NCBI GenBank assembly: GCA_003130845.1
Contig: QEXW01000025.1
Span: 1,962 to 65,961, forward strand
DNA: 64,000 bases
Origin: Anaerolineae bacterium
GTDB lineage: Bacteria > Chloroflexota > Anaerolineae > Anaerolineales > Villigracilaceae
Direction of reading: 5' to 3'
Of the stretch, positions 232 to 63,822 are shown piece by piece. The notes beneath the pieces are model-generated. The model was given only the letters and a program-made list of their open reading frames with translations, ran no database searches and was not told the origin of the DNA. How positions within the stretch are numbered: the stretch's first letter is position 1; the number at the start of each line of letters is the position of its first letter. The translations under genes and the position numbers were made by a program.

Positions 232-1190
232 GAGGCAGGGGTTTCATCTGCTAATACTGGCTTGCGTGATTCTGCTAGGATGTCATCTATGCTCATGGGT
301 TCGCCGGCTCGTGTGGGATGGTAGTGGACATGTACCCGTCGAACGTTTGCTAACTCTTTGCAAACCAGCGCTTCGACCTGATGTGCAATGCGGTTGCCTT
401 CGTCTACGCTGATTTTTCCATCTACGCCAATGGTTAGGTTGATGACAATATGCGGACCAAAGCGATGGGCTTGCATTTCTTCCAATTGTTGCACGCCAGG
501 GACATCTTGAAGCAAACGACAGGTCTGTTCGGTTAGCTCGCGACTGGGAACAGCATCCATTAAATCAACGGACGATTCACGCAGAATGTAGATGCCTGTG
601 CGCAGGATGAGTAAGGCGACGAGCGCACCTGCCATTGGGTCAACCCAGGGCAGGCCACGCTGACCAAGGAAGATGCCCAACGAGGCAGCAGAGGCCGAAA
701 AGAAGTCGTTGCGATGGTCATAGGCTAAGGCTTCGACCACCGGGTTTTGGGTTTCGCGGCCTAGTTTGCGGATGTAAAAGGTTAGGAAGAGCTTGATACC
801 GACTGTGAGTAAGGCTATCCAGAGCGCGATGGTCAGCGCACCTTCGGAATCGCTATTCCCACTGAACAGGTCCCAGGCTTTATCAATTGAGCCCCAAAAT
901 ACGGCAACGGCTGTAGTGACAATGAAGGAGCCAACCACCAGCGCGGCTATGCTTTCTAATTGGCGATGTCCGTAGGGGTGTTCGTCGTCGGCGGGTTTGT
1001 TGGCTAAGCGAACAAAAATGCTGGCGACGACATAGTAGGCGACATCGGAGGTGGAGTTGATGCCTTCGGCCAGTAAGGCGGGGCTGTGACCAATCACCCC
1101 AAAGATGGTTTTTAGGGCGGCCAAACCGATGTTGACCGCTAGTCCTATATTGACTGCTAACAGACTTTTCTGGTCACGCTCATGAGCCAT
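228..1190 (-). CDS. cation diffusion facilitator (CDF) family metal efflux transporter
   Basis: 320-aa ORF with N-terminal hydrophobic helices, a DDEHPYGHRQLE motif and a C-terminal cytoplasmic domain (HRFGPHIVINLTIGVD), as in CzcD/FieF-type exporters. Confidence 0.85.
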   Translation of the reverse strand: MAHERDQKSLLAVNIGLAVNIGLAALKTIFGVIGHSPALLAEGINSTSDVAYYVVASIFVRLANKPADDEHPYGHRQLESIAALVVGSFIVTTAVAVFWGSIDKAWDLFSGNSDSEGALTIALWIALLTVGIKLFLTFYIRKLGRETQNPVVEALAYDHRNDFFSASAASLGIFLGQRGLPWVDPMAGALVALLILRTGIYILRESSVDLMDAVPSRELTEQTCRLLQDVPGVQQLEEMQAHRFGPHIVINLTIGVDGKISVDEGNRIAHQVEALVCKELANVRRVHVHYHPTRAGEPMSIDDILAESRKPVLADETPAS

Positions 1191-1196
1191 TTTGTG

Positions 1197-1202
1197 ATTT
1201 TA
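1197..1202 (-). promoter_or_regulatory. -10 box TAAAAT placed 6 nt upstream of the CDF start codon (leaderless-mRNA geometry)
   Basis: Minus strand reads TAAAAT-CACAAA-ATG. There is no Shine-Dalgarno. The same spacing recurs at five other starts in the window. Confidence 0.4.
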
Positions 1203-1227
1203 ATCGCTTTTTGCTATACCTTGGGGT

Positions 1228-1338
1228 GGACAAAACTCATGTTTCTGGTGTGTTTGTCTGCATGTCGTTATCCCCCAAATTCGCCAGTTTGCGATAGGCG
1301 GGACAAAACTCATGTTTCTGGTGTGTTTGTCTGCATGT
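1228..1338. repeat. perfect 38-bp direct repeat (1228-1265 and 1301-1338, period 73 bp) in a divergent intergenic region
   Basis: GGACAAAACTCATGTTTCTGGTGTGTTTGTCTGCATGT occurs twice without mismatch. Flanking sequence is unrelated. Confidence 0.9.
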
Positions 1339-1372
1339 TTTTTGCGTGAGGCCGCAATGGCAGGGGAATGTT

Positions 1373-1400
1373 TTGTAAAGAAAGGCAGCGAAAGTATAAT
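1373..1400 (+). promoter_or_regulatory. sigma70-like promoter TTGTAA-N16-TATAAT for the zinc-ribbon gene
   Basis: Hexamers at 1373-1378 and 1395-1400. GGAG lies 6 nt before ATG 1429. Confidence 0.45.
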
Positions 1401-1428
1401 TGTCTCGCTGCATTTCATGGAGTTAAGT

Positions 1429-1848
1429 ATGTATTGCCCTCGTTGCCAGTCTGTCTTGACTAAAAAATACTATAAAGGGATGATGGAAGTGGATTATTGC
1501 CCAAGATGCAGGGGCATGTGGCTTGATTTTAACGAGCTTGACCGTTTGGAAGATGTGGTTTTTGACCAGGACCACTTCAAAGGTTCGCTGATTCACCGCG
1601 AAGCGCCGGTAGAAAATCGTTGTCCGGTTTGTGAAACGCCGATGCTGGAGTTTCAATATCGTTTGTATCACCTTAAGTTGGATGCCTGTTCTCATAAGCA
1701 CGGTTTTTGGCTCGATGCAGGTGAAGATGAGCATGTGCTAGAGGTGATGCGTAAGCGTAAAGGTGAAATTCACCGCAAAAGAGAGGCGGAAGCAGAGTGG
1801 AAAAAGGTGCTCAAGGGCTTGCACGAATTTTTTCGGCAGGGTATGTAG
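1429..1848 (+). CDS. TFIIB-type zinc-ribbon domain protein (two zf-TFIIB-like modules)
   Basis: CPRC...CPRC followed by GMWLDFNELD, then CPVC...C.H followed by GFWLDAGE. Start chosen at ATG 1429 because of the GGAG upstream. The longer ORF from 1312 covers the promoter. Confidence 0.7.
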   Translation: MYCPRCQSVLTKKYYKGMMEVDYCPRCRGMWLDFNELDRLEDVVFDQDHFKGSLIHREAPVENRCPVCETPMLEFQYRLYHLKLDACSHKHGFWLDAGEDEHVLEVMRKRKGEIHRKREAEAEWKKVLKGLHEFFRQGM

Positions 1849-1909
1849 TGGCCGTGGTTGGTGTCGGGTATAATCTTGTTGTGGCATAACCAGTCTGATG
1901 GAGGCAACG

Positions 1910-2824
1910 ATGGAGCAACATGCGTTTTTTGAGGGCAAAATTGTCCCGTTGAGCGAAGCAAAAGTCAGTATTGCGACGCATGGGTTGAATTATGGAACGG
2001 CAGCGTTTGGCGGGTTGCGGGCTTATTGGAATGCAGAGGAGGAAAAGTTATTTCTTTTCCGCCCGCAAGATCACTACCGCCGATTTTTGAATTCGACCAA
2101 AATTTTGTGTATGGAATTTGCGCACACTCCCGAAAGCCTGACCCAGCTCACCATTGAATTGCTCAAAGCCGATGGTTGGCAGCAGGATGTGTATATTCGC
2201 CCGCTGGCGTATAAAGCGGATGCCGGTATTGGTGTGCGCTTGCACGATTTGCGCGATGAAATTTCCATTTTTGCTTTGCCGTTTGGGGCGTATGGCAAGA
2301 ATGAGGACAATGCGCATGTGACGATTTCTTCTTGGCGGCGGGTGGATGATAACATCATCCCGGCGCGCGGCAAAATCAGCGGTGCGTATGCTAATTCGGC
2401 GCTCATCAAAACGGATGCCATACGGGCCGGTTTCGACGAGGCGCTGGTTCTTGACCAGAATGGCCATATCTCCGAGGGTACGGCAATGAACGTCTTTTTG
2501 GTGCGTGATGGGGTGTTGATTACCCCGCCGGTGTGGGATAATATCTTGGAAGGGATTACCCGCCGTTCGGTGATTGAGCTGGCTCGCAATGAACTAGGTC
2601 TGGATGTGGTAGAACGTTCTGTGGACCGCACAGAGGCTTTTTTGTGTGATGAATTGTTCTTGACCGGCACTGCTGCGCAGATTACCGTAGTGACCAAGGT
2701 GGACTACCGACCGGTAGGAAGCGGCCAAATGGGGCCGATTACAGCCCAACTGCGCGCTTTGTTCAATGATGTGGTGCGCGGACGAAACCCCAAATACCGC
2801 CACTGGAATGTGGCTGTGGAATAA
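1910..2824 (+). CDS. ilvE: branched-chain amino acid aminotransferase (class IV PLP enzyme)
   Basis: FEGKIVPLSEAKVSIATHGLNYGTAAFGGLRAY, ...ARGKISGAYANS..., ...GITRRSVIEL... are typical of IlvE. GGAGG lies 5 nt before ATG 1910. An alternative ATG is at 1898. Confidence 0.85.
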   Translation: MEQHAFFEGKIVPLSEAKVSIATHGLNYGTAAFGGLRAYWNAEEEKLFLFRPQDHYRRFLNSTKILCMEFAHTPESLTQLTIELLKADGWQQDVYIRPLAYKADAGIGVRLHDLRDEISIFALPFGAYGKNEDNAHVTISSWRRVDDNIIPARGKISGAYANSALIKTDAIRAGFDEALVLDQNGHISEGTAMNVFLVRDGVLITPPVWDNILEGITRRSVIELARNELGLDVVERSVDRTEAFLCDELFLTGTAAQITVVTKVDYRPVGSGQMGPITAQLRALFNDVVRGRNPKYRHWNVAVE

Positions 2825-2871
2825 AAAACACGCCCCGCAAGAGCGTTTCTGCGGGGCGTGTGTGCTTTTTT
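2823..2871. terminator. bidirectional rho-independent terminator between convergent genes
   Basis: An A-run, then stem ACACGCCCCGC / GCGGGGCGTGT (2828-2838 / 2851-2861), then a T-run. Confidence 0.8.
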
Positions 2872-2873
2872 GT

Positions 2874-3650
2874 TTATTTTTGTGTAAAGCGTACGTAAAT
2901 CAGGTTGCGGTTGCAGTCGGCATAGGTGGTTAGGTAAATTTGCTCCGACATGGGGGCGCTGGCCTGGTCGAAGAGTTGTATCCACAACGTATTTTTGGAA
3001 GCCACCGGTGCCAGGCCCAAATCGAACTCGAACCCACTTTGTCCATAGGCCAGGTTTAAGCCGGTCATGGTCAGTTCGTTGAAGGATTTGCCGGGCAAAC
3101 TCCCACCGAGTTTGACGATTAGCCCCATGGCGGGATTATTTTTGTTATCCAGCGCCTGACCGGCAATGTAGAGTCGGTCACAGGTTGAGTCGGCGCGATA
3201 GACGGTGCTGGCGACAGCATTAACGGTCACGACATACGGGGCGCCGGTGGGTTTGGGGGTGCGGGTGGGTGAAACGACCGGGGTCGCGGTTGGCGGTTTG
3301 GTGGGGGTGACTAGTTTGAACGGGGTGAAGGTTGGTTCGAGGGTGATGGTAGGCCGGGGGGTATTGGTGGCTGTGGGCGGCAGGGTTGGTTCGGGCGTCC
3401 AGGTTGGGTCAAAACGGATGGGGGTGACGGTGGGTGTTAGGCTGGGCGGAATCGGTGTGGGAGGCTGCAACGGATTGATGGCCGAGTAGGGATTGGTGAA
3501 AATGTTAAAAAACACGATACAAAGGCACACGGTCATCAACAGCATCACGCCGGTCAGAACGTTCCAGAGTGCATCGCGGTTGTTCTTTTTCTTTTTGACC
3601 GGCTTGGCAGAGCGTGGCGTATCGTTGAGGAAATCGTCGTAGTTGGTCAT
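2874..3650 (-). CDS. membrane-anchored hypothetical protein with Pro/Thr-rich linker
   Basis: Basic N-terminus, one TM (LTGVMLLMTVCLCIVFFNIF), about 100 aa of P/T-rich linker, and a C-terminal globular domain of unknown family. Confidence 0.5.
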   Translation of the reverse strand: MTNYDDFLNDTPRSAKPVKKKKNNRDALWNVLTGVMLLMTVCLCIVFFNIFTNPYSAINPLQPPTPIPPSLTPTVTPIRFDPTWTPEPTLPPTATNTPRPTITLEPTFTPFKLVTPTKPPTATPVVSPTRTPKPTGAPYVVTVNAVASTVYRADSTCDRLYIAGQALDNKNNPAMGLIVKLGGSLPGKSFNELTMTGLNLAYGQSGFEFDLGLAPVASKNTLWIQLFDQASAPMSEQIYLTTYADCNRNLIYVRFTQK

Positions 3651-3674
3651 GTATCTATCTCCACAAGGCGTGTG

Positions 3675-4574
3675 TTATTGTACGAACACGTCAATCACGC
3701 TTTGCTGGCGGCGTTGGGCCAACCAGTCGAGTAAGGCGCGCTGTTGCAGGGCAAGCAGGGCATCGGGGCTGAGCGGGCGCTCTTCCTGCACTTCCAGCAG
3801 TTTGAGGATGTGGTAACCGGCTTCACTCTGAACAATTGCGCTTATGCCGCCTACTTCCAGGCTGAAAGCGGCTTCTTCCACTTCTTTGCTCGGTAGATAG
3901 TTGCGTGGAAACCAACCAATGTCACCGCCGGTAATGGGGTCTACTCGTGCGGCGAGTTCATCGAAATCGGCCCCGGCCTGCAATTGACGGTAGTAGTTTT
4001 GAGCGACGGTTTCATTATAGAGCAAAATTTGGCGGATGTGTACCTGCCGGGCAGTTTGGGGGATAGACGAAATGATTTTGTCACGCATCCAAGCGGCTGC
4101 GATAGCGCGTTTTAGGGCTGTGCGCAACGTATCGTCCGTGTATCCCTGGGCTTGCATCCAGGCACGCAAGAATTCGATGCCACCGAGATGATTGGCTAGG
4201 GCTGCTAGGCGTGCTTGTAAGGCAGCCTCGTCGAGTGTGAAGCCGGCTTCGGCAGCGCCCTGGGCCAATAGCACTTGAGAAACCAGGTCATCAAGCACGA
4301 TGCGGCGCGCTGCTTGTTCGTCTATTGGATTGCCGAGCGCGGCTTGTGCAGCCTGGTAGCGGTTAAGTTCTGCCAGAAACTCGTCGAGCAAAATCGGCTC
4401 TCCATTGACTCGAGCCGCCAATGGTAAGGGAGTTTGTGTAGGGGGTGGTACGGTTTCTGTTGGTAGTGCCAGGGTAGGGGAAATCTCTGGGGTGCTGCTT
4501 GGCGCAGAACAGGCAGAAAGTGCCAAAAATAAGAGGGCCAGTAGGCCGTGTTTGTGAACGTGTGAACCGAACAT
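3675..4574 (-). CDS. parvulin-type peptidyl-prolyl isomerase lipoprotein (SurA/PrsA-like)
   Basis: Lipobox LALSAC. The C-terminal rotamase segment GGDIGWFPRNYLPSKEVEEAAFSLEVGGISAIVQSEAGYHILKLLE is parvulin-like. Confidence 0.8.
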   Translation of the reverse strand: MFGSHVHKHGLLALLFLALSACSAPSSTPEISPTLALPTETVPPPTQTPLPLAARVNGEPILLDEFLAELNRYQAAQAALGNPIDEQAARRIVLDDLVSQVLLAQGAAEAGFTLDEAALQARLAALANHLGGIEFLRAWMQAQGYTDDTLRTALKRAIAAAWMRDKIISSIPQTARQVHIRQILLYNETVAQNYYRQLQAGADFDELAARVDPITGGDIGWFPRNYLPSKEVEEAAFSLEVGGISAIVQSEAGYHILKLLEVQEERPLSPDALLALQQRALLDWLAQRRQQSVIDVFVQ

Positions 4575-55572: not shown

Positions 55573-55875
55573 ATGAATGTTAATTTTTATGCTACTCTGC
55601 GGCTGATTACCGGCAAGAAGACCGTTTCGCTTGACCATTTGCCCGACGGGGTGACCGTGCGCGAGGTGTTGGAGGAGTGTTTTAAACTGTATCCGGCGTT
55701 GCGGGCCGAGTTGATGAAAAATGACCAGGAAATGCTGGGGCATGTACATTTTTTCGTCAATGGGCGCGATGTGCCGTATTTGCCGGATGTGCTCGAGACG
55801 CGTATTTCACGCAGCGATAAGCTGGATGTCTTCCCGGCTGTGGGAGGGGGCAGCGGATGGGGCAACGGATGGTGA
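55573..55875 (+). CDS. MoaD/ThiS-family ubiquitin-like sulfur-carrier protein with a 7-aa extension after the Gly-Gly
   Basis: DKLDVFPAVGGG aligns with the MoaD C-terminus (..FPPVTGG). It continues SGWGNGW-stop, encoded by the first units of the tandem repeat. AGGAGA lies before ATG 55573. Confidence 0.7.
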   Translation: MNVNFYATLRLITGKKTVSLDHLPDGVTVREVLEECFKLYPALRAELMKNDQEMLGHVHFFVNGRDVPYLPDVLETRISRSDKLDVFPAVGGGSGWGNGW

Positions 55876-56188
55876 AGCGGATAAGCGGATGTGGGCAGCG
55901 GATGGTGAAGCGGATAAACGGATGTGGGTAGCGGATGGGGAAGCGGATGGTGAAGCGGACAAGCGGATGTGGGCAGCGGATGGGGCAACGGATGGTGAAG
56001 CGGACAAGCGGATGTGGGCAGCGGATGGGGCAACGGATGGTGAAGCGGATAAACGGATGTGGGCAGCGGATGGTGAAGCGGATAAACGGATGTGGGCAGC
56101 GGATGAGGAAACGGATAAGCGGATGGTGAAGCGGATAAGCGGCTAACTGGCTAACCGGCTAACCGGACAACTGGATAACTGGATAACT
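55854..56188. repeat. hierarchical tandem repeat: about 26 subunits (CGGATGTGGGCAG / CGGATGGGGCAA / CGGATGGTGAAG / CGGAYAAR) forming 45- and 33-bp units, then 6 x 8-bp GGMTAACY
   Basis: Read directly. 18 copies of CGGATG lie in 55854-56130. The 8-mers span 56141-56188 and end 6 nt before ATG 56195. Confidence 0.9.
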
Positions 56189-56194
56189 GGGTAG

Positions 56195-58908: not shown

Positions 58909-61900
58909 CTACCTGTTTGCCTTTCGGCGCCAAGCCAGAACGGTGGCGATGCTCCAGCCCATCGCCAGGAGCCACACCGCCATCAATAGCCATGCCGCCC
59001 AAACCTGCGCAAAGGTTGACCATTCGATGGGCAAATTGCGGATTGTCCAGACTGGAATCAACCAATTCCATACCTTTAATAACCATTCTGTGCCAGGCAA
59101 GGCCATGCTTTCATTTGCTCCAGGCAAGAATACGAACACATATCCTGCCAGCGCGTACGTGCTTGCCCCCAGGACAAGCAAGGCAAGCACCCAATTTCTC
59201 CCCGCCGCCGAGCGGACCGACGGCCACACCAGCATGGCGCTTCCCGTCAATAAAAGGAGCAATCCAATTGCATCGAGGTAGATAGGGGTAGGCGCCTGCC
59301 AGGGATTCCAAAGGAACCAGGCGGAAAGCAGGGCGGCCGCGCCCGGCGTGAATGCCCCGACCCACCAGCGTGTCCTGCGATGCCCTTCCTGTTTCCAGCC
59401 TTTCCAAACCAGGCCGATGGCCAGGACGAACAAAGCGGCTGCCCCGGCGCCAAAGGCCGTTTTTTGCACGAGGATGGCGTGCTGCTTTTCGATTTCGTCC
59501 TCATCTGGAATGGGTTTATCAGGGCAGGTGGGACGATATGGCTCATCGCCAATATAGGTCTGCCACTCGGCAAGCGTCAAGTTGCGCGGCAGGCGGCGGC
59601 AGGCTTCGGCCATCAGGTCTGCGATGCGCCAGTACCACACGCTTATTCCGTCATCAAGACCGCTGGAAATCACATAGCGCCCATCTGGGCTGAAGGCGAC
59701 GAAGAGCACAAGGTTGTCATGCGTCATGCGCGCCACCTCCGCGCCCGTCTGTGCCTCCCACACCCGCGCCGTGCCGTCCTCACTCCCGGAGAGCACATAG
59801 CGCCCATCCGGACTAAAGGCGACTGATTGCACTGCTCCTTCGTGTGTGATGCGTGCCACTTCGGTGCCCGTCTGCGCCTCCCACACCTGCGCCGTGCCAT
59901 CGCCGCTCCCAGAGACCACATAGCGCCCGTCCGGGCTGAAAGTGCTAGATAACACGCCGCCTTTGTGTCTCATGTGCGCTACTTCTGCACCTGTTTGCGC
60001 CTCCCAGACTCGTGCTAGGCCATCCAAACTCCCGGAGAGCACATAGCGCCCATCTGGGCTGAAGGCGACGGAAAGCACGAAATTGTCATGCTTCATGCGT
60101 GCTACTTCTACGCCTGTCTGTGCCTCCCACACCCGCACTGTGCCGTCATAACTCCCGGAGAGTACATAGCGCCCATCTGGACTGAAGTCAGCTGAGCGCA
60201 CCTGACCCTTATGCGCCATGCGGGCTACTTCTACGCCCGTTTGCGCCTCCCACACCCGCGCCGTGCCGTCCTCACTTCCGGAGACCACATGGCGTCCATC
60301 TGGGCTGAAATCAACGATGACCACCGGCTCTTCATGCGTCATGCGTGCCACTTTCGCGCCTGTCTGTGTCTCCCATACATCTATCGTGTTGTCTGTATTC
60401 CCGAAGACTACATACTGCCCATCTGGGCTGAAAGCAATGGAGTTCACGCCGCTCTCATGTGCCATGCGTACTACTTCAACACCCGTCTGTAGATCCCATA
60501 CCCGCACAGGCTCATCCCAACTTCCGGCTGCCAAGTATCGCCCATTCGGGCTGATGGCAAAGTAGAGCTCGCTGCCCTCCGATGGAATGATTTGCAGTAC
60601 TTCTGCACCCGGCTGAAAATTCCACACTCGAGCCGTGGTAGTAGCTCCACCGGATAGTACATAGCGCCCATCCGGGCTGAAGGCAACGGAAGTCAAGCCG
60701 CTCTCATGCGTCATGCGCGCCACTTCCGCACCTGTCTGTGCCCACCATACTCGTGCCGTGCCATCCCCACTCCCGGAGACCACATAGCGCCCATCTGGGC
60801 TGAAGGCAACGGAGACCACTGGCCCTTCATGCGTCATGCGTGTCACTTCCGCGCCTGTCTGTGCCTCCCATACCCGTGATGTGTAATCATCACACCCAGA
60901 GACCACATAGCGCCCATCTGGGCTGAAGGCGACAGCCCACACATCACCGTCATGTGTTATGCGAGCCATTTCTGCGCCGGTCTGCGCCTGCCACACCCGC
61001 ACCGTGCCATCCCAGCTCCCGGAGACCACATAGCGCCCATCCGGGCTGAAGGCGACGGATGTCACATCACTCTCGTGCGTCATACGCGCCACTTCCGCAC
61101 CTGTCTGTGCTTCCCACACCCGCGCTGTGCCATCACTACTCCCGGAGACCACGTAGCGCCCATCTGGGCTGAAGGCGACGGAGTTCACCAAGCTTTCATG
61201 CGTGATGCGCGCTACTTCCACGCCGGTTTGTGCCTCCCAGACCTGCGCCGTACCGTCATCACCCCCTGAGAGCACATAGCGCCCATCTGGGCTGAAGGCC
61301 ACAGAAGTCACGCCGCTCTCGTGCGTCGTACGCGCCACTTCTGCCCCTGTCTGCGCCTCCCACATTCGTGCTGTGCCATCACTACTTCCAGAGACCACAT
61401 AGCGCCCATCTGGGCTGAAGGCCACGGAAGTCACACCGCCCTCGTGCATCATGCGCGTCACTTCTGCGCCGGTCTGCGCCTGCCACACCCGCGCTGTACC
61501 GTCCCCACTCCCGGAGACCACATAGCGCCCATCTGGGCTGAAGTCAACGGAGTTTACATTATCTTCATGCGTCAGGCTGGCAACAGGCAAGGCTGCCAGC
61601 GCGAGATAGCGGCGCAAAGCCTGGTCGGCGCCCCAGCCGGCGCCGCGCTGCCCGGCTTCCACAGCCAATAAACCACTCTGGGTCGTGAGATTTGCAACAT
61701 CAGCATAACCACCCTCAAACTCGATGGCAGTTTGCGCTTGGGCAGCTAGTTGGCGTGCTATGGCCAGATTGGCCTGTTGTTCGGCGCGACGCCACTGGAA
61801 AAGCGCCAAGGTAGTAATCACTAGTAGGATGGCTGAACCAACCACTAGACCGGCTGTAATGCGTTGGCGGGTGCGTTCCCGCTGGCGGCGGGCTTGTTCG

Positions 61901-63381
61901 GCAGCCAGCGCGCCGGCTTTGAGAAAAGCCAAGGCTTGCGCGCTCAGCGTATCGTCCGATAACTTCTCGCGGGCGGCTGCCAGCCGCGTCCCGGTGTAGA
62001 GGTAACTGGGGTCGCGGTCATGCTCGAGCCATTCGGCGGCGTCGCGGGCAACCTGGTTTTGCAGGGCAATCCGGGCGCGGTCTTCCTCGATCAGCGTCTT
62101 CAGCCACGGCCAGGCCTGGATGAGTTTCTCGTGCGCCAGGGTGACGGTGCGTGCGCCGTGTTCGTCCTCGGCGGTGATGAGCAGGCGGGCGTCGGCCAGT
62201 TTGCGCACCAATCCCTCCATGAACGCCGCATCTGTCTGCGCCGGGATGAGTTCCTCTAAGCGCGCCGTCCGGCGGGTATCCTGCGCGCCTTCCCCTCGGA
62301 CTTCGACCAGGCTGCGGAATAGCGTTTTGGCCAGCTCCTGCTCTGCAGCGCTCAACGCTGCAAAGGCCGTCTGGGCATGACGCTCCAGCGATTTGTGCAA
62401 GCCGCCGCGCACCAGATAATCGCGCTGGGTTAGGGCAGTCAGTGTTCCTCGTTCCCGGCTCCATTCGAACAGGTCGGTCAGGGCAAACTGCATCAGCGGC
62501 AGGGCGCCTGGCTCGCCTCCCATGTCGGCAATCACCTGCGCCACCAGTTGAGGTTCGATGGGCAATCCCACCTGCTCCACCGGCAGGGCCACCGCGCGCA
62601 CCAGTTCATCCGGCTGCATCGCCCCCACCTGGAAGAATTGCTGGTTGAGCAGTTTGTTCAGCGCCCGATAAGTGGCGCAGTTGGCAACGAAATCCGAGCG
62701 CATGGTGAACAAGACCAGCGTCCGTCCGTTCTGGTGCATGGCGGCGCGGGTCAACAGCGTGAGAAAGGCCTGTCGTTCCTCTTCTTTGACGCCGGGCGCA
62801 AAGATTTCTTCGAACTGGTCAACCAACAGCACAAGGCGCTGGTCAGGTTCATCGCCAAGCAGCGACTCGCTCACTTTGTGCAGCGCCTCACTGTCACGAG
62901 CGGCGCGCTGACGCAGGTAATCACCGGTTTCGGGGGATTTCAGCCGCGAGACTGCTGTAGCCAGCGCTTCGAGCGGGTCGCGGCCGGGCGTTAGGGCTGT
63001 GTATAGCCAGCGCTCGCTGCCCCGCACCTGGCCGGCTTTCAGGGCGGGAATTAACCCTGCCCGCGCCAACGATGATTTCCCCGACCCGGACGGGCCGGTG
63101 ATGAAAATGGCGCGGCTGTCCTTCACTCGTTCGAGCAGTTCTTCCACCAGGCGCTCGCGCCCGAAGAAGCGTTCGGCATCCTGTTCGCCGAAGGCGCGCA
63201 GGCCAACGTAGGGGCAAGTGCCATCGAAAGGTTTGGGCTGAAATTCGGTGCGAATCTGGGTCAGCAGGGCCTGTACCTGTTCGACGCTGTACCCAAACGT
63301 GACCTGGTCGCCCAGAATCACATCCCGACCGGCATGGATATTCCCTATGTCACGAGCAGGCGGTGTTTCCGACATTAACAT
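58909..63381 (-). CDS. STAND (nSTAND/NACHT-like) P-loop NTPase - TM helix - 16 x WD40 - C-terminal polytopic membrane domain
   Basis: CPYVGLRAFGEQDAERFFGRE...ITGPSGSGKSSL (Walker A), LVLLVDQFEE (Walker B), TM ITAGLVVGSAILLVITTLALF (aa 508-529), 16 blades with FSPDGRYV.SGS.DGTARVWE, and about 5 TM helices in the last 180 aa. Confidence 0.85.
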   Translation of the reverse strand: MLMSETPPARDIGNIHAGRDVILGDQVTFGYSVEQVQALLTQIRTEFQPKPFDGTCPYVGLRAFGEQDAERFFGRERLVEELLERVKDSRAIFITGPSGSGKSSLARAGLIPALKAGQVRGSERWLYTALTPGRDPLEALATAVSRLKSPETGDYLRQRAARDSEALHKVSESLLGDEPDQRLVLLVDQFEEIFAPGVKEEERQAFLTLLTRAAMHQNGRTLVLFTMRSDFVANCATYRALNKLLNQQFFQVGAMQPDELVRAVALPVEQVGLPIEPQLVAQVIADMGGEPGALPLMQFALTDLFEWSRERGTLTALTQRDYLVRGGLHKSLERHAQTAFAALSAAEQELAKTLFRSLVEVRGEGAQDTRRTARLEELIPAQTDAAFMEGLVRKLADARLLITAEDEHGARTVTLAHEKLIQAWPWLKTLIEEDRARIALQNQVARDAAEWLEHDRDPSYLYTGTRLAAAREKLSDDTLSAQALAFLKAGALAAEQARRQRERTRQRITAGLVVGSAILLVITTLALFQWRRAEQQANLAIARQLAAQAQTAIEFEGGYADVANLTTQSGLLAVEAGQRGAGWGADQALRRYLALAALPVASLTHEDNVNSVDFSPDGRYVVSGSGDGTARVWQAQTGAEVTRMMHEGGVTSVAFSPDGRYVVSGSSDGTARMWEAQTGAEVARTTHESGVTSVAFSPDGRYVLSGGDDGTAQVWEAQTGVEVARITHESLVNSVAFSPDGRYVVSGSSDGTARVWEAQTGAEVARMTHESDVTSVAFSPDGRYVVSGSWDGTVRVWQAQTGAEMARITHDGDVWAVAFSPDGRYVVSGCDDYTSRVWEAQTGAEVTRMTHEGPVVSVAFSPDGRYVVSGSGDGTARVWWAQTGAEVARMTHESGLTSVAFSPDGRYVLSGGATTTARVWNFQPGAEVLQIIPSEGSELYFAISPNGRYLAAGSWDEPVRVWDLQTGVEVVRMAHESGVNSIAFSPDGQYVVFGNTDNTIDVWETQTGAKVARMTHEEPVVIVDFSPDGRHVVSGSEDGTARVWEAQTGVEVARMAHKGQVRSADFSPDGRYVLSGSYDGTVRVWEAQTGVEVARMKHDNFVLSVAFSPDGRYVLSGSLDGLARVWEAQTGAEVAHMRHKGGVLSSTFSPDGRYVVSGSGDGTAQVWEAQTGTEVARITHEGAVQSVAFSPDGRYVLSGSEDGTARVWEAQTGAEVARMTHDNLVLFVAFSPDGRYVISSGLDDGISVWYWRIADLMAEACRRLPRNLTLAEWQTYIGDEPYRPTCPDKPIPDEDEIEKQHAILVQKTAFGAGAAALFVLAIGLVWKGWKQEGHRRTRWWVGAFTPGAAALLSAWFLWNPWQAPTPIYLDAIGLLLLLTGSAMLVWPSVRSAAGRNWVLALLVLGASTYALAGYVFVFLPGANESMALPGTEWLLKVWNWLIPVWTIRNLPIEWSTFAQVWAAWLLMAVWLLAMGWSIATVLAWRRKANR
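59629..61575 (-). repeat. 16 tandem 123-bp (41-codon) WD40-blade repeats with very high internal DNA identity
   Basis: CATAGCGCCCATC(T/C)GG recurs at 59673, 59796, 59919, 60042 and onward, with exact 123-nt spacing. Confidence 0.9.
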
Positions 63382-63402: not shown

Positions 63403-63822
63403 TCAATGCCCAAATAATTTCAAAGCAAGTTGCCCCAATTGTGCTAGGACTGTGCCCAGACCGATGGCCGCTTCGATGCTTCCGCTTAGTTTTTCTATGC
63501 TCTGTTTGGCGCTGTCCAAGGTCTTGTGGATGTGTTCGCCTGGTGGAGCGGGCTTTTTTGTCTCCAGGATGGCTTCATTCACTTTTGCCTGCGCGGCTTT
63601 CACTGCTTTTGCTTGGGCAGGTTTCAATCCTGGGTGCGCCTTTAATTTCTCGATTTCCGCTTCCAGCCGTTGCAGCGCTTCCACGAATTGGGGTTGGTTC
63701 TGGATGTTCGAAATGTTCTGGGTATTAATGATTTGGTCCCCCATAATTACATCCCGGCCAGCCTGGATGCCGCCCTGGATGTTGTAGATGGGTCCACCTT
63801 GCGCTTGATGCTTCCGGGTCAT
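63403..63822 (-). CDS. small Q/N/G-rich protein sharing the AGRDVI-GDQ motif with the downstream STAND protein; helical middle, hydrophobic C-terminal helix
   Basis: 139 aa. Residues 9-43 are GGPIYNIQGGIQAGRDVIMGDQIINTQNISNIQNQ. C-terminal AAIGLGTVLAQLGQLALKLF. Ends 21 nt before the STAND ATG. Confidence 0.6.
   Translation of the reverse strand: MTRKHQAQGGPIYNIQGGIQAGRDVIMGDQIINTQNISNIQNQPQFVEALQRLEAEIEKLKAHPGLKPAQAKAVKAAQAKVNEAILETKKPAPPGEHIHKTLDSAKQSIEKLSGSIEAAIGLGTVLAQLGQLALKLFGH

Follow-up and report, generated by a model that had tools for sequence, protein, structure and literature searches.

WD40 arrays similar to the one described here are already documented (PMC5587647, PMC9218822, PMC1805685), some of them as sensors carried by STAND NTPases. 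The array that concerns us belongs to P0001, a 1490-aa protein encoded on the minus strand of a 64,000-nucleotide stretch of contig QEXW01000025.1 (the window, whose coordinates we use throughout), part of an Anaerolineales metagenome-assembled genome (MAG) of 3.77 Mb in 159 contigs. We propose, with a probability of about 0.7, that this array is the predicted ligand-binding sensor of a membrane-spanning STAND NTPase resembling NOD-like receptors (NLRs). By analogy, it would work like the WD40 sensors of the bacterial WRAP-type STANDs and of the fungal HNWD NLRs.

In WRAP (Npun_R6612 of Nostoc punctiforme, structure 2YMU; PMC9218822, PMC6805158), as in P0001, a bacterial STAND ATPase ends in tandem propellers, a distinct first beta-strand closes the structure, amplification started from a single blade, and array-specific nucleotides are found in relatives. 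This double propeller is the best solved relative of P0001 (E 1e-116 by sequence and 2e-51 by fold), followed by Apaf-1. WRAP differs in having 14 blades (7 + 7) that hardly carry any substitution, even a synonymous one, whereas P0001 has 16 (probably 8 + 8) with 75-85% DNA identity in its core and a synonymous difference (pS) of 0.47, and combines them with an nSTAND1 NTPase, a transmembrane (TM) helix before the array and a module of five TM helices (5-TM) after it. P0001 thus shares with WRAP the signs of independent single-blade amplification and a 2YMU-like domain at the C-terminus of a STAND protein, but not the near-identical blades that mark a recent amplification, since its blades reach at most 85% DNA identity with a pS of 0.47. 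The HNWD/NWD proteins of Podospora anserina (HET-E, HET-D and HET-R; PMC1805685, PMC2873952) likewise place WD40 blades with a conserved scaffold after an NTPase, have their variable top-face codons in the d-a loop and b-c turn, and show concerted evolution of their repeats. However, they are cytosolic, combine a NACHT NTPase with a HET death domain, and have far more alike repeats with active exchange and copy-number polymorphism, in contrast with P0001, which has an nSTAND1 NTPase, no recognisable effector domain, an old array of apparently fixed number and a sensor that is probably extracytoplasmic. Since it has neither a NACHT nor a HET domain (a HET domain could not be detected, and Pfam matches nothing in the first 56 residues), P0001 falls outside the fungal HNWD family. 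The original prediction, made from the DNA letters of the window, had drawn a parallel with fungal NLRs (HET-E/NWD); the host is not a cytosolic NACHT NLR of that type but a bacterial protein of the nSTAND1 family, with a membrane helix that is conserved and blades probably outside the cytoplasm.

Two further groups of proteins complete this comparison. In the sections of Hu et al. 2017 (PMC5587647) drawn on here, WD40 proteins are called 'highly repetitive' at an internal identity of at least 0.7 and 'moderately repetitive' between 0.4 and 0.7. P0001 shares with the repetitive WD40s of those sections a high internal identity and a diversity located at predicted hotspots. Its 12 core blades (1-7 and 11-15) are 66-88% identical to one another and, over all 16 blades, the mean internal identity is 0.64 and the median 0.68, below or at that cut-off; under the eight-contiguous-repeats rule given there, P0001 is probably 'moderately repetitive'. 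The same sections describe a minority class of ancient repetitive WD40s with high synonymous divergence (dS), purifying selection and a median omega of 0.19, which P0001 matches (dS about 0.8-0.9, omega 0.19), and they contain neither a STAND context nor membrane topology. The definition of the nSTAND1 family goes back to Kaur et al. 2021 (PMC8195603), and its conflict NTPases, together with the nSTAND1-CLec sensors diversified by diversity-generating retroelements (DGRs; PMC10907252), share with P0001 the NTPase family and a variable C-terminal sensor. Like the nSTAND1 conflict systems, P0001 belongs to a set of proteins distributed patchily in multicellular (filamentous) bacteria, with relatives that carry a trypsin-like protease or have a TCAD2 neighbour. 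By contrast with nSTAND1-CLec, its variation resides in repeat paralogues instead of a retroelement, and no effector is fused to it. Diversification of the DGR type seems unlikely for P0001: the variation lies between paralogous blades and not between a template and a variable repeat, and the neighbouring genes that were scanned include no reverse transcriptase.

From the N-terminus, P0001 consists of an N-terminal tag, the nSTAND1 NTPase, a TM helix, a helical linker, 16 WD40 blades, a Cys-Cys cap and the 5-TM module:

58909..63381, minus strand: whole gene P0001, a single open frame of 1490 aa (open reading frame, translation and Pfam).
62008..63213, minus strand: nSTAND1 STAND NTPase domain, residues 57-458 (PF20703, E 1.5e-111).
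63073-63096, minus strand: Walker A motif GPSGSGKS, residues 96-103 (motif positions).
62806-62829, minus strand: Walker-B-like motif LLVDQFEE (motif positions).
61792..61860, minus strand: TM helix 1, residues 508-530, ITAGLVVGSAILLVITTLALFQW (hydropathy; conserved peak in homologues).
61570..61791, minus strand: three-helix linker, residues 531-597, together with the velcro strand (DSSP of AlphaFold model m3b62a0069229).
61570-61590, minus strand: N-terminal 'velcro' beta-strand, residues 598-604 (DSSP), which would close propeller 1.
60586..61569, minus strand: WD40 blades 1-8, residues 605-932, probable 8-bladed propeller 1.
59599..60585, minus strand: WD40 blades 9-16, residues 933-1261, probable 8-bladed propeller 2.
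59521..59610, minus strand: C-terminal cap AEAC-RRLPRNLTLAEWQTYIGDEPYRPTCP, residues 1258-1287, with conserved Cys 1261 and Cys 1286; the motif recurs in WD40 proteins.
58927..59481, minus strand: C-terminal membrane module, residues 1301-1485, about five TM helices (hydropathy).

Both main domains match their family profiles. The PF20703 match scores 374 bits against a curated cut-off of 27.1 and covers positions 1-378 of the 379 in the profile, which together with the P-loop makes P0001 an nSTAND1 protein, and the WD40 assignment relies on PF00400 (E 1.7e-162, 15 stretches), on the near-invariant H1, D23 and W29, and on the four strands that each unit forms in the model. The 16 units (residues 605-1261, 59599-61569, minus strand) are read in one open frame, and Tandem Repeats Finder detects them as a 123-bp tandem array at 59671-61574 (15.5 copies, 71% matches, score 1394). 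When units are delimited by anchoring on the S-P-D/N-G motif, their spacing is 41 codons fifteen times and 42 codons once, the extra codon lying between blades 8 and 9. The original prediction had announced 16 blades of exactly 41 codons; the count stands and the exact length holds for 15 of the 16 spacings. Its period, strand-independent coordinates and consensus blade were also essentially right, save for position 3 of the consensus and for the end coordinate 59629, which drops the last 10 codons of blade 16. By contrast, its description of the repeats as near-identical does not hold: DNA identity between blade pairs averages 70% over all 16, with 75-85% among the 12 core blades and 46-74% for blades 8, 9, 10 and 16, which bears out the stronger divergence already noticed for blades 8-10 and extends it to blade 16. 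Long identical strings do occur, although a 28-mer quoted as an example is exact in three places only and recurs in five others with one mismatch. We also examined a possible super-period of three units (period 369 in Tandem Repeats Finder) and discarded it, as the identity matrix has no clear excess at three-blade spacing.

Tandem repeats are a classic assembly problem and the MAG is split into 159 contigs, so that the array might be suspected to be a collapsed, expanded or chimeric repeat, a hazard against which the original prediction had warned. We find such an artefact scarcely credible, because the longest exact repeat in the array is only 42 bp (repeated 41-mers, n=2; none at k >= 55). 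Moreover, none of the 16 units interrupts the open frame, four homologues have the same number of blades, the structural model reaches a predicted local distance difference test (pLDDT) score of 92, and each blade has its own triplet of hotspot residues.

These hotspots stand out in the column entropy of the 16 blades, which peaks at unit positions 22 (3.08 bits), 4 (2.90) and 6 (2.58), followed by positions 41 (2.09) and 3 (1.92), most scaffold columns having 0-0.3 bits; the clustering of variation previously noticed at positions 2-4, 6-7 and 22(-24) is thereby confirmed. The triplets formed by positions 4, 6 and 22 are distinct in all 16 blades. In an AlphaFold2 model of residues 531-1290 built with 36 sequences (mean pLDDT 92.1), strands a to d occupy unit positions 5-10, 16-21, 25-30 and 36-41 (DSSP), which puts positions 1-4 in the d-a loop and positions 22-24 in the b-c turn. 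These two elements make up the top face of WD40 propellers. Positions 6, 4 and 22 correspond to the R1, R1-2 and D-1 hotspots (motif V5-x6-S7-V8 and x22-D23), which make most of the top-face contacts of WD40 domains and are experimentally validated contact residues (Wu et al., PMC3419727). In addition, positions 4, 6, 22 and 24 match in spacing and location the positively selected pairs (7,9) and (25,27) of HET-E (PMC1805685). The variable residues had been assigned to the ligand-binding face, and three lines agree on it: the R1-2/R1/D-1 hotspots, the HET-E sites, and the placement in the model at the d-a loop, the start of strand A and the b-c turn. Exposure alone is insufficient to account for variability, because the exposed loops of the bottom face, SPDGR (11-15) and QTG (32-34), are almost invariant.

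According to the same model, the blades probably form two 8-bladed propellers (8 + 8). Its confidence dips only at the junction between blades 8 and 9 (pLDDT 64), a lone strand (residues 598-604) precedes blade 1, and blade 16 consists of strands a to c followed by a helix. Closure would be velcro-style, by the N-terminal strand in propeller 1 and by strand d of blade 8 in propeller 2. On this arrangement, which is the simplest reading, the divergent junction and terminal blades (8-10 and 16) would have special structural roles and would escape homogenisation, as the terminal and junction blades of WRAP likewise do (PMC9218822).

The selective regime differs strongly between these positions and the rest of the blade. 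With rates counted as differences from the majority codon of each column, synonymous changes amount to 0.353 per synonymous site over the whole array, and the non-synonymous rate at positions 4, 6 and 22 reaches 0.569 per site, a ratio of 1.61 (Fisher p 2e-4, in a test that takes sites as independent), whereas the columns outside 2, 3, 4, 6, 7, 22 and 24 have a non-synonymous rate of 0.054 (ratio 0.15). Position 24 varies to a moderate degree only. In the homologous arrays of P0105 and P0091, variability again peaks at the hotspot columns, with ratios there of 2.1 and 2.4, respectively, and the remaining columns of the three arrays have ratios of 0.15-0.30. The ratio of non-synonymous to synonymous substitution rates (dN/dS) over the whole unit is 0.19, and the scaffold, namely the H-S/T-D-W tetrad, FSPDGRY, SGS-D-T-RVW and TG-EVARMT, is under strong purifying selection. 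As to the diversifying selection postulated by the original prediction, the codon-aligned units show an excess at the hotspots, and we do not claim formal positive selection for P0001. With good support, positions 4, 6 and 22 are unconstrained at the least, and probably diversified.

These data also bear on whether the propellers might be structural or scaffolding elements in which positions 4, 6 and 22 vary merely as unconstrained surface, with no diversified recognition of ligands. The hotspot ratio of only ~1.6 in P0001, at sites near saturation, and glycine as the commonest residue at positions 4 and 22 would suit that possibility, and we know of no ligand. Nevertheless, it appears unlikely, given that the other exposed loops hardly vary, that three arrays homogenised independently of one another all vary most at these three positions, the two younger arrays with ratios of 2.1-2.4, and that these positions are validated WD40 contact residues (PMC3419727).

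The blades share ancestry at the DNA level and derive from one ancestral blade. Same-residue pairs use one and the same codon 62% of the time, where the codon usage of the gene itself would predict 39%, and the serine columns 7, 11, 19 and 21 each keep to a codon family of their own (TCC, AGC, TCC and AGT, respectively); such column-specific shared codons rule out convergence on the consensus without common descent. P0001 belongs to an Anaerolineales subfamily with the same blade scaffold (P0091, P0105, P0097, P0036 and, roughly, P0008 and P0052), in which the NTPase domains are 53-56% identical to that of P0001, the consensus blade is 73-83% identical to its own, and the C-terminal cap is the same. 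The first four of these proteins also have 16 blades. We compared the DNA of two of the homologous arrays, P0105 (L009) and P0091 (L011), with that of P0001, and found near-fixed synonymous codons specific to each array at columns 5, 9, 12, 14, 17, 18 and 28. For instance, the glycine codon of column 14 is GGG in P0001, GGC in P0105 and GGA in P0091, and in the same order column 9 has GCC, GCG and GCT, and column 28 GTG, GTC and GTT. The scaffold pS is 0.47 within P0001 and 0.37 and 0.26 within the other two arrays, and rises to 0.65-0.79 between arrays. A tree of blade DNA from which the hotspot codons had been removed groups the blades by array (3 label changes, compared with 21.8 on average after shuffling), with a pair of terminal blades as the sole exception. 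Positional orthology of the blades with those of the 16-blade homologues was examined and dismissed, since diagonal and off-diagonal identities are equal, the terminal blade excepted; the last blade of P0001 resembles the last blades of other proteins.

Synonymous codons are thus nearly fixed across the blades of one array but differ from array to array, so that each array must have been amplified or homogenised separately. Pereira and Lupas use array-specific nucleotides as a sign of independent amplification from a single blade (PMC9218822), and the codon pattern seen here fits that process and concerted evolution equally. In P0001 the event was not recent, because the synonymous difference of 0.47 per site between blades (dS about 0.8-0.9) lies about two-thirds of the way to saturation, and the array is the oldest of the three compared. 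It therefore represents a differentiated and apparently stable sensor that is probably no longer shuffled, and its copy number looks fixed. The original prediction had instead seen a fast-evolving array, likened to the shuffled repeats of fungal HET-E/NWD; a rival account along these lines has shuffling still at work and an unstable copy number. Array-specific synonymous codons and a blade tree that follows the arrays do show past homogenisation or amplification, and a few in-register exact runs of 30-42 nt are present. Present-day shuffling is very improbable, considering the synonymous difference, the overall dN/dS of 0.19, a DNA identity of 75-85% and not above 90%, the 16 blades kept in P0091, P0105, P0097 and P0036 despite NTPases only ~54% identical, and the fit to the ancient repetitive WD40 class with its median omega of 0.19 in the sections of PMC5587647 cited above.

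An intriguing aspect of P0001 is the location of this sensor. The first TM helix has 23 residues, with a mean hydropathy of 2.41 over 19 residues and 6 K/R in the preceding 15, and a hydrophobic peak between residues 496 and 583 occurs in 118 of 119 non-self homologues. Through all six helices, the predicted inside loops are positively charged and the outside ones are not. Since the positive-inside rule is obeyed through the six helices only with the propellers outside and the NTPase inside, the NTPase is probably cytoplasmic and the propellers probably lie outside the cytoplasm. A cytoplasmic sensor, with hydrophobic segments that are peripheral or buried, would be more conventional: every characterised STAND/NLR protein has its sensor there, including the bacterial Avs and bNACHT as well as Apaf-1 (PMC13581612, PMC7159879), and WD40 domains are mostly cytoplasmic. 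Such a location seems unlikely for P0001, however, in view of the strength and conserved position of the hydrophobic segment, the charge pattern that it would violate, the conserved pair of cysteines in the cap, and the relatives with Cys-containing loop insertions or a C-terminal PD40 propeller.

The cap (AEAC...PTCP, with its two conserved cysteines) ends many WD40 proteins, homologues of P0001 included. The 5-TM module that follows it is rare: out of 1.84 billion representatives, about eight relatives extend past the cap, and four of these reach E <= 1e-10. It has no Pfam family and no Foldseek match below E 0.2, and its AlphaFold model (pLDDT 66) consists of five long helices. Two relatives with the same rare module, P0123 and P0126, have a trypsin-like serine protease N-terminal to nSTAND1-TM-WD40, one of them with 2-3 blades only. 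Insertions of 8-10 residues with two cysteines (Cys-x(6-8)-Cys) occur in the b-c loops of P0105 (blade 5), P0097 (blade 10) and P0126 (two blades), for example GGCDIYNNYKCDKGT; they may be disulfide-stapled loops, which would suit an extracytoplasmic location. In P0003, the closest NTPase relative (61% identity, the best non-self value), residues 600-1804 comprise a diverged WD40 array, the same Cys-Cys cap and then a PD40 (TolB-like) propeller, and P0015 and P0022 end in a different multi-TM module. Because the endings of these three proteins differ, the modules after the cap have apparently been swapped freely.

The proposed sensor would thus work as follows. The sixteen 41-residue blades would fold into two tandem propellers, probably 8 + 8, on a rigid scaffold from whose top face positions 4, 6 and 22 (and partly 24), free or driven to differ, would project, so that the distinct triplets would form two rings of ~24 variable contact residues each. 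The NTPase would be cytoplasmic, followed by the conserved TM helix, with the propellers outside the membrane and the 5-TM module anchoring the far end. A ligand, probably a protein or peptide, would bind to the propeller faces, the signal would cross the membrane and the nSTAND1 switch would respond, with an output via the N-terminal tag shared with a small protein encoded upstream, via the membrane module, or both. By analogy with related systems, a putative role in conflict, in immunity or in cell-cell recognition is likely. We put forward more tentatively, as a possible but rather doubtful extension, that P0001 and a large Anaerolineales family are true transmembrane NLR-like receptors, in which hypervariable propellers tethered to the membrane at both ends would sense an external cue (a phage particle or the surface of a neighbour cell in the filament) and signal via one helix to a cytoplasmic nSTAND1, which would recruit a small partner by means of the matching tag. 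To our knowledge, none of the characterised bacterial STANDs has been described as sensing from the outside in, whether for immunity or for kin recognition.

Several observations weigh against our interpretation of the array as the sensor of a membrane-spanning STAND. Hydropathy and charge are the only basis for the outside location, whereas the top-face mapping and the division into 8 + 8 blades are based on the DSSP assignment and pLDDT of a predicted model together with literature positions. The hotspot excess is modest in P0001 and close to saturation, selection on codon usage might lower the synonymous rate with which it is compared, the Fisher test assumes independent sites, and this rough test does not cleanly separate diversifying selection from a simple lack of constraint. 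Glycine, which prevails at positions 4 and 22, is atypical of hotspots. Among 18 genomes of the same genus no orthologue turned up (best match 55%), nor does any of the 31 related genomes have one. The downstream neighbour is a convergent glyoxalase-family gene and the downstream flanks are housekeeping. PADLOC gave no defence-system assignment: beyond a generic match of the WD40 region to the candidate model HEAT-ARM_XIII, it returned only marginal hits to mad8 and mad3. Finally, we know of no experiment or ligand for any nSTAND1-TM-WD40 protein.

The upstream side of the locus provides some clues about the output of the system:

63403..63822, minus strand: upstream gene of 139 aa, 21 bp from the STAND start.
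63301..63339, minus strand: N-terminal tag of P0001, IHAGRDVILGDQV, residues 15-27, common to the STAND protein and the upstream 139-aa protein.

The tag, of 10-13 residues (AGRDVI(M/L)GDQ(I/V)), occurs as AGRDVIMGDQ and AGRDVILGDQ in this pair of proteins, and the first 54 STAND residues match the 139-aa protein with an E value of 4e-7 (BLASTP). The 139-aa protein has no Pfam match. At the P0105 locus, an upstream TCAD2 protein, also of 139 aa, and the STAND protein share a different tag (SGNVNVAGGNI and SGEVNVAGGNI, 10/12 identical); homology of the P0001 neighbour to TCAD2 was considered and rejected, as neither BLASTP nor Pfam reveals similarity. From these sequences, the matching tag looks like the wiring of a sensor and its partner, and by comparison with matching-motif NLR/effector pairs it suggests an output route. 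Beyond the window, on the same strand, a 799-aa HTH(XRE)-AAA_16/NACHT-like-TPR protein is encoded in L013 (G000:C151:65300-73600) at 800-3199 (-), flanked by open reading frames of 111 and 145 aa (481-816 (-) and 3205-3642 (-)) with overlapping or abutting ends and no family matches, the 111-aa one being doubtful. Together with this 799-aa gene, the upstream locus may be a multi-gene STAND module. Relatives with nSTAND1 are present in 10 of the 31 related genomes. The only other nSTAND1 protein of the host genome (L001, G000:C71, open reading frame 1339-4227 (+)) has the same layout of N-terminal stretch, nSTAND1 and TM helix, followed by TPR-like instead of WD40 repeats, and its contig ends within the gene. 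Elsewhere in the window, between small open reading frames, a hierarchical CGGATG-rich tandem repeat with periods of 12, 33, 45 and 78 bp lies at 55843-56190 and is followed by an 8-bp microsatellite (GGATAACT, ~7 copies).

P0001 offers a codon-level example of a known principle, in which a rigid WD40 scaffold is copied and specificity is placed in three contact residues per blade. It shows a late stage of this process, with an old amplification, purifying selection and a fixed set of 16 blades, that can be compared with younger sister arrays. The more interesting question concerns the whole protein, namely whether P0001 spans the membrane as a STAND receptor whose sensor lies outside. If the proposed topology is true, such proteins could provide stable, modular binding scaffolds for protein engineering, and the diversified propellers would be extracellular sensors of STAND switches in filamentous Chloroflexota, widening the NLR paradigm beyond the cytosol.

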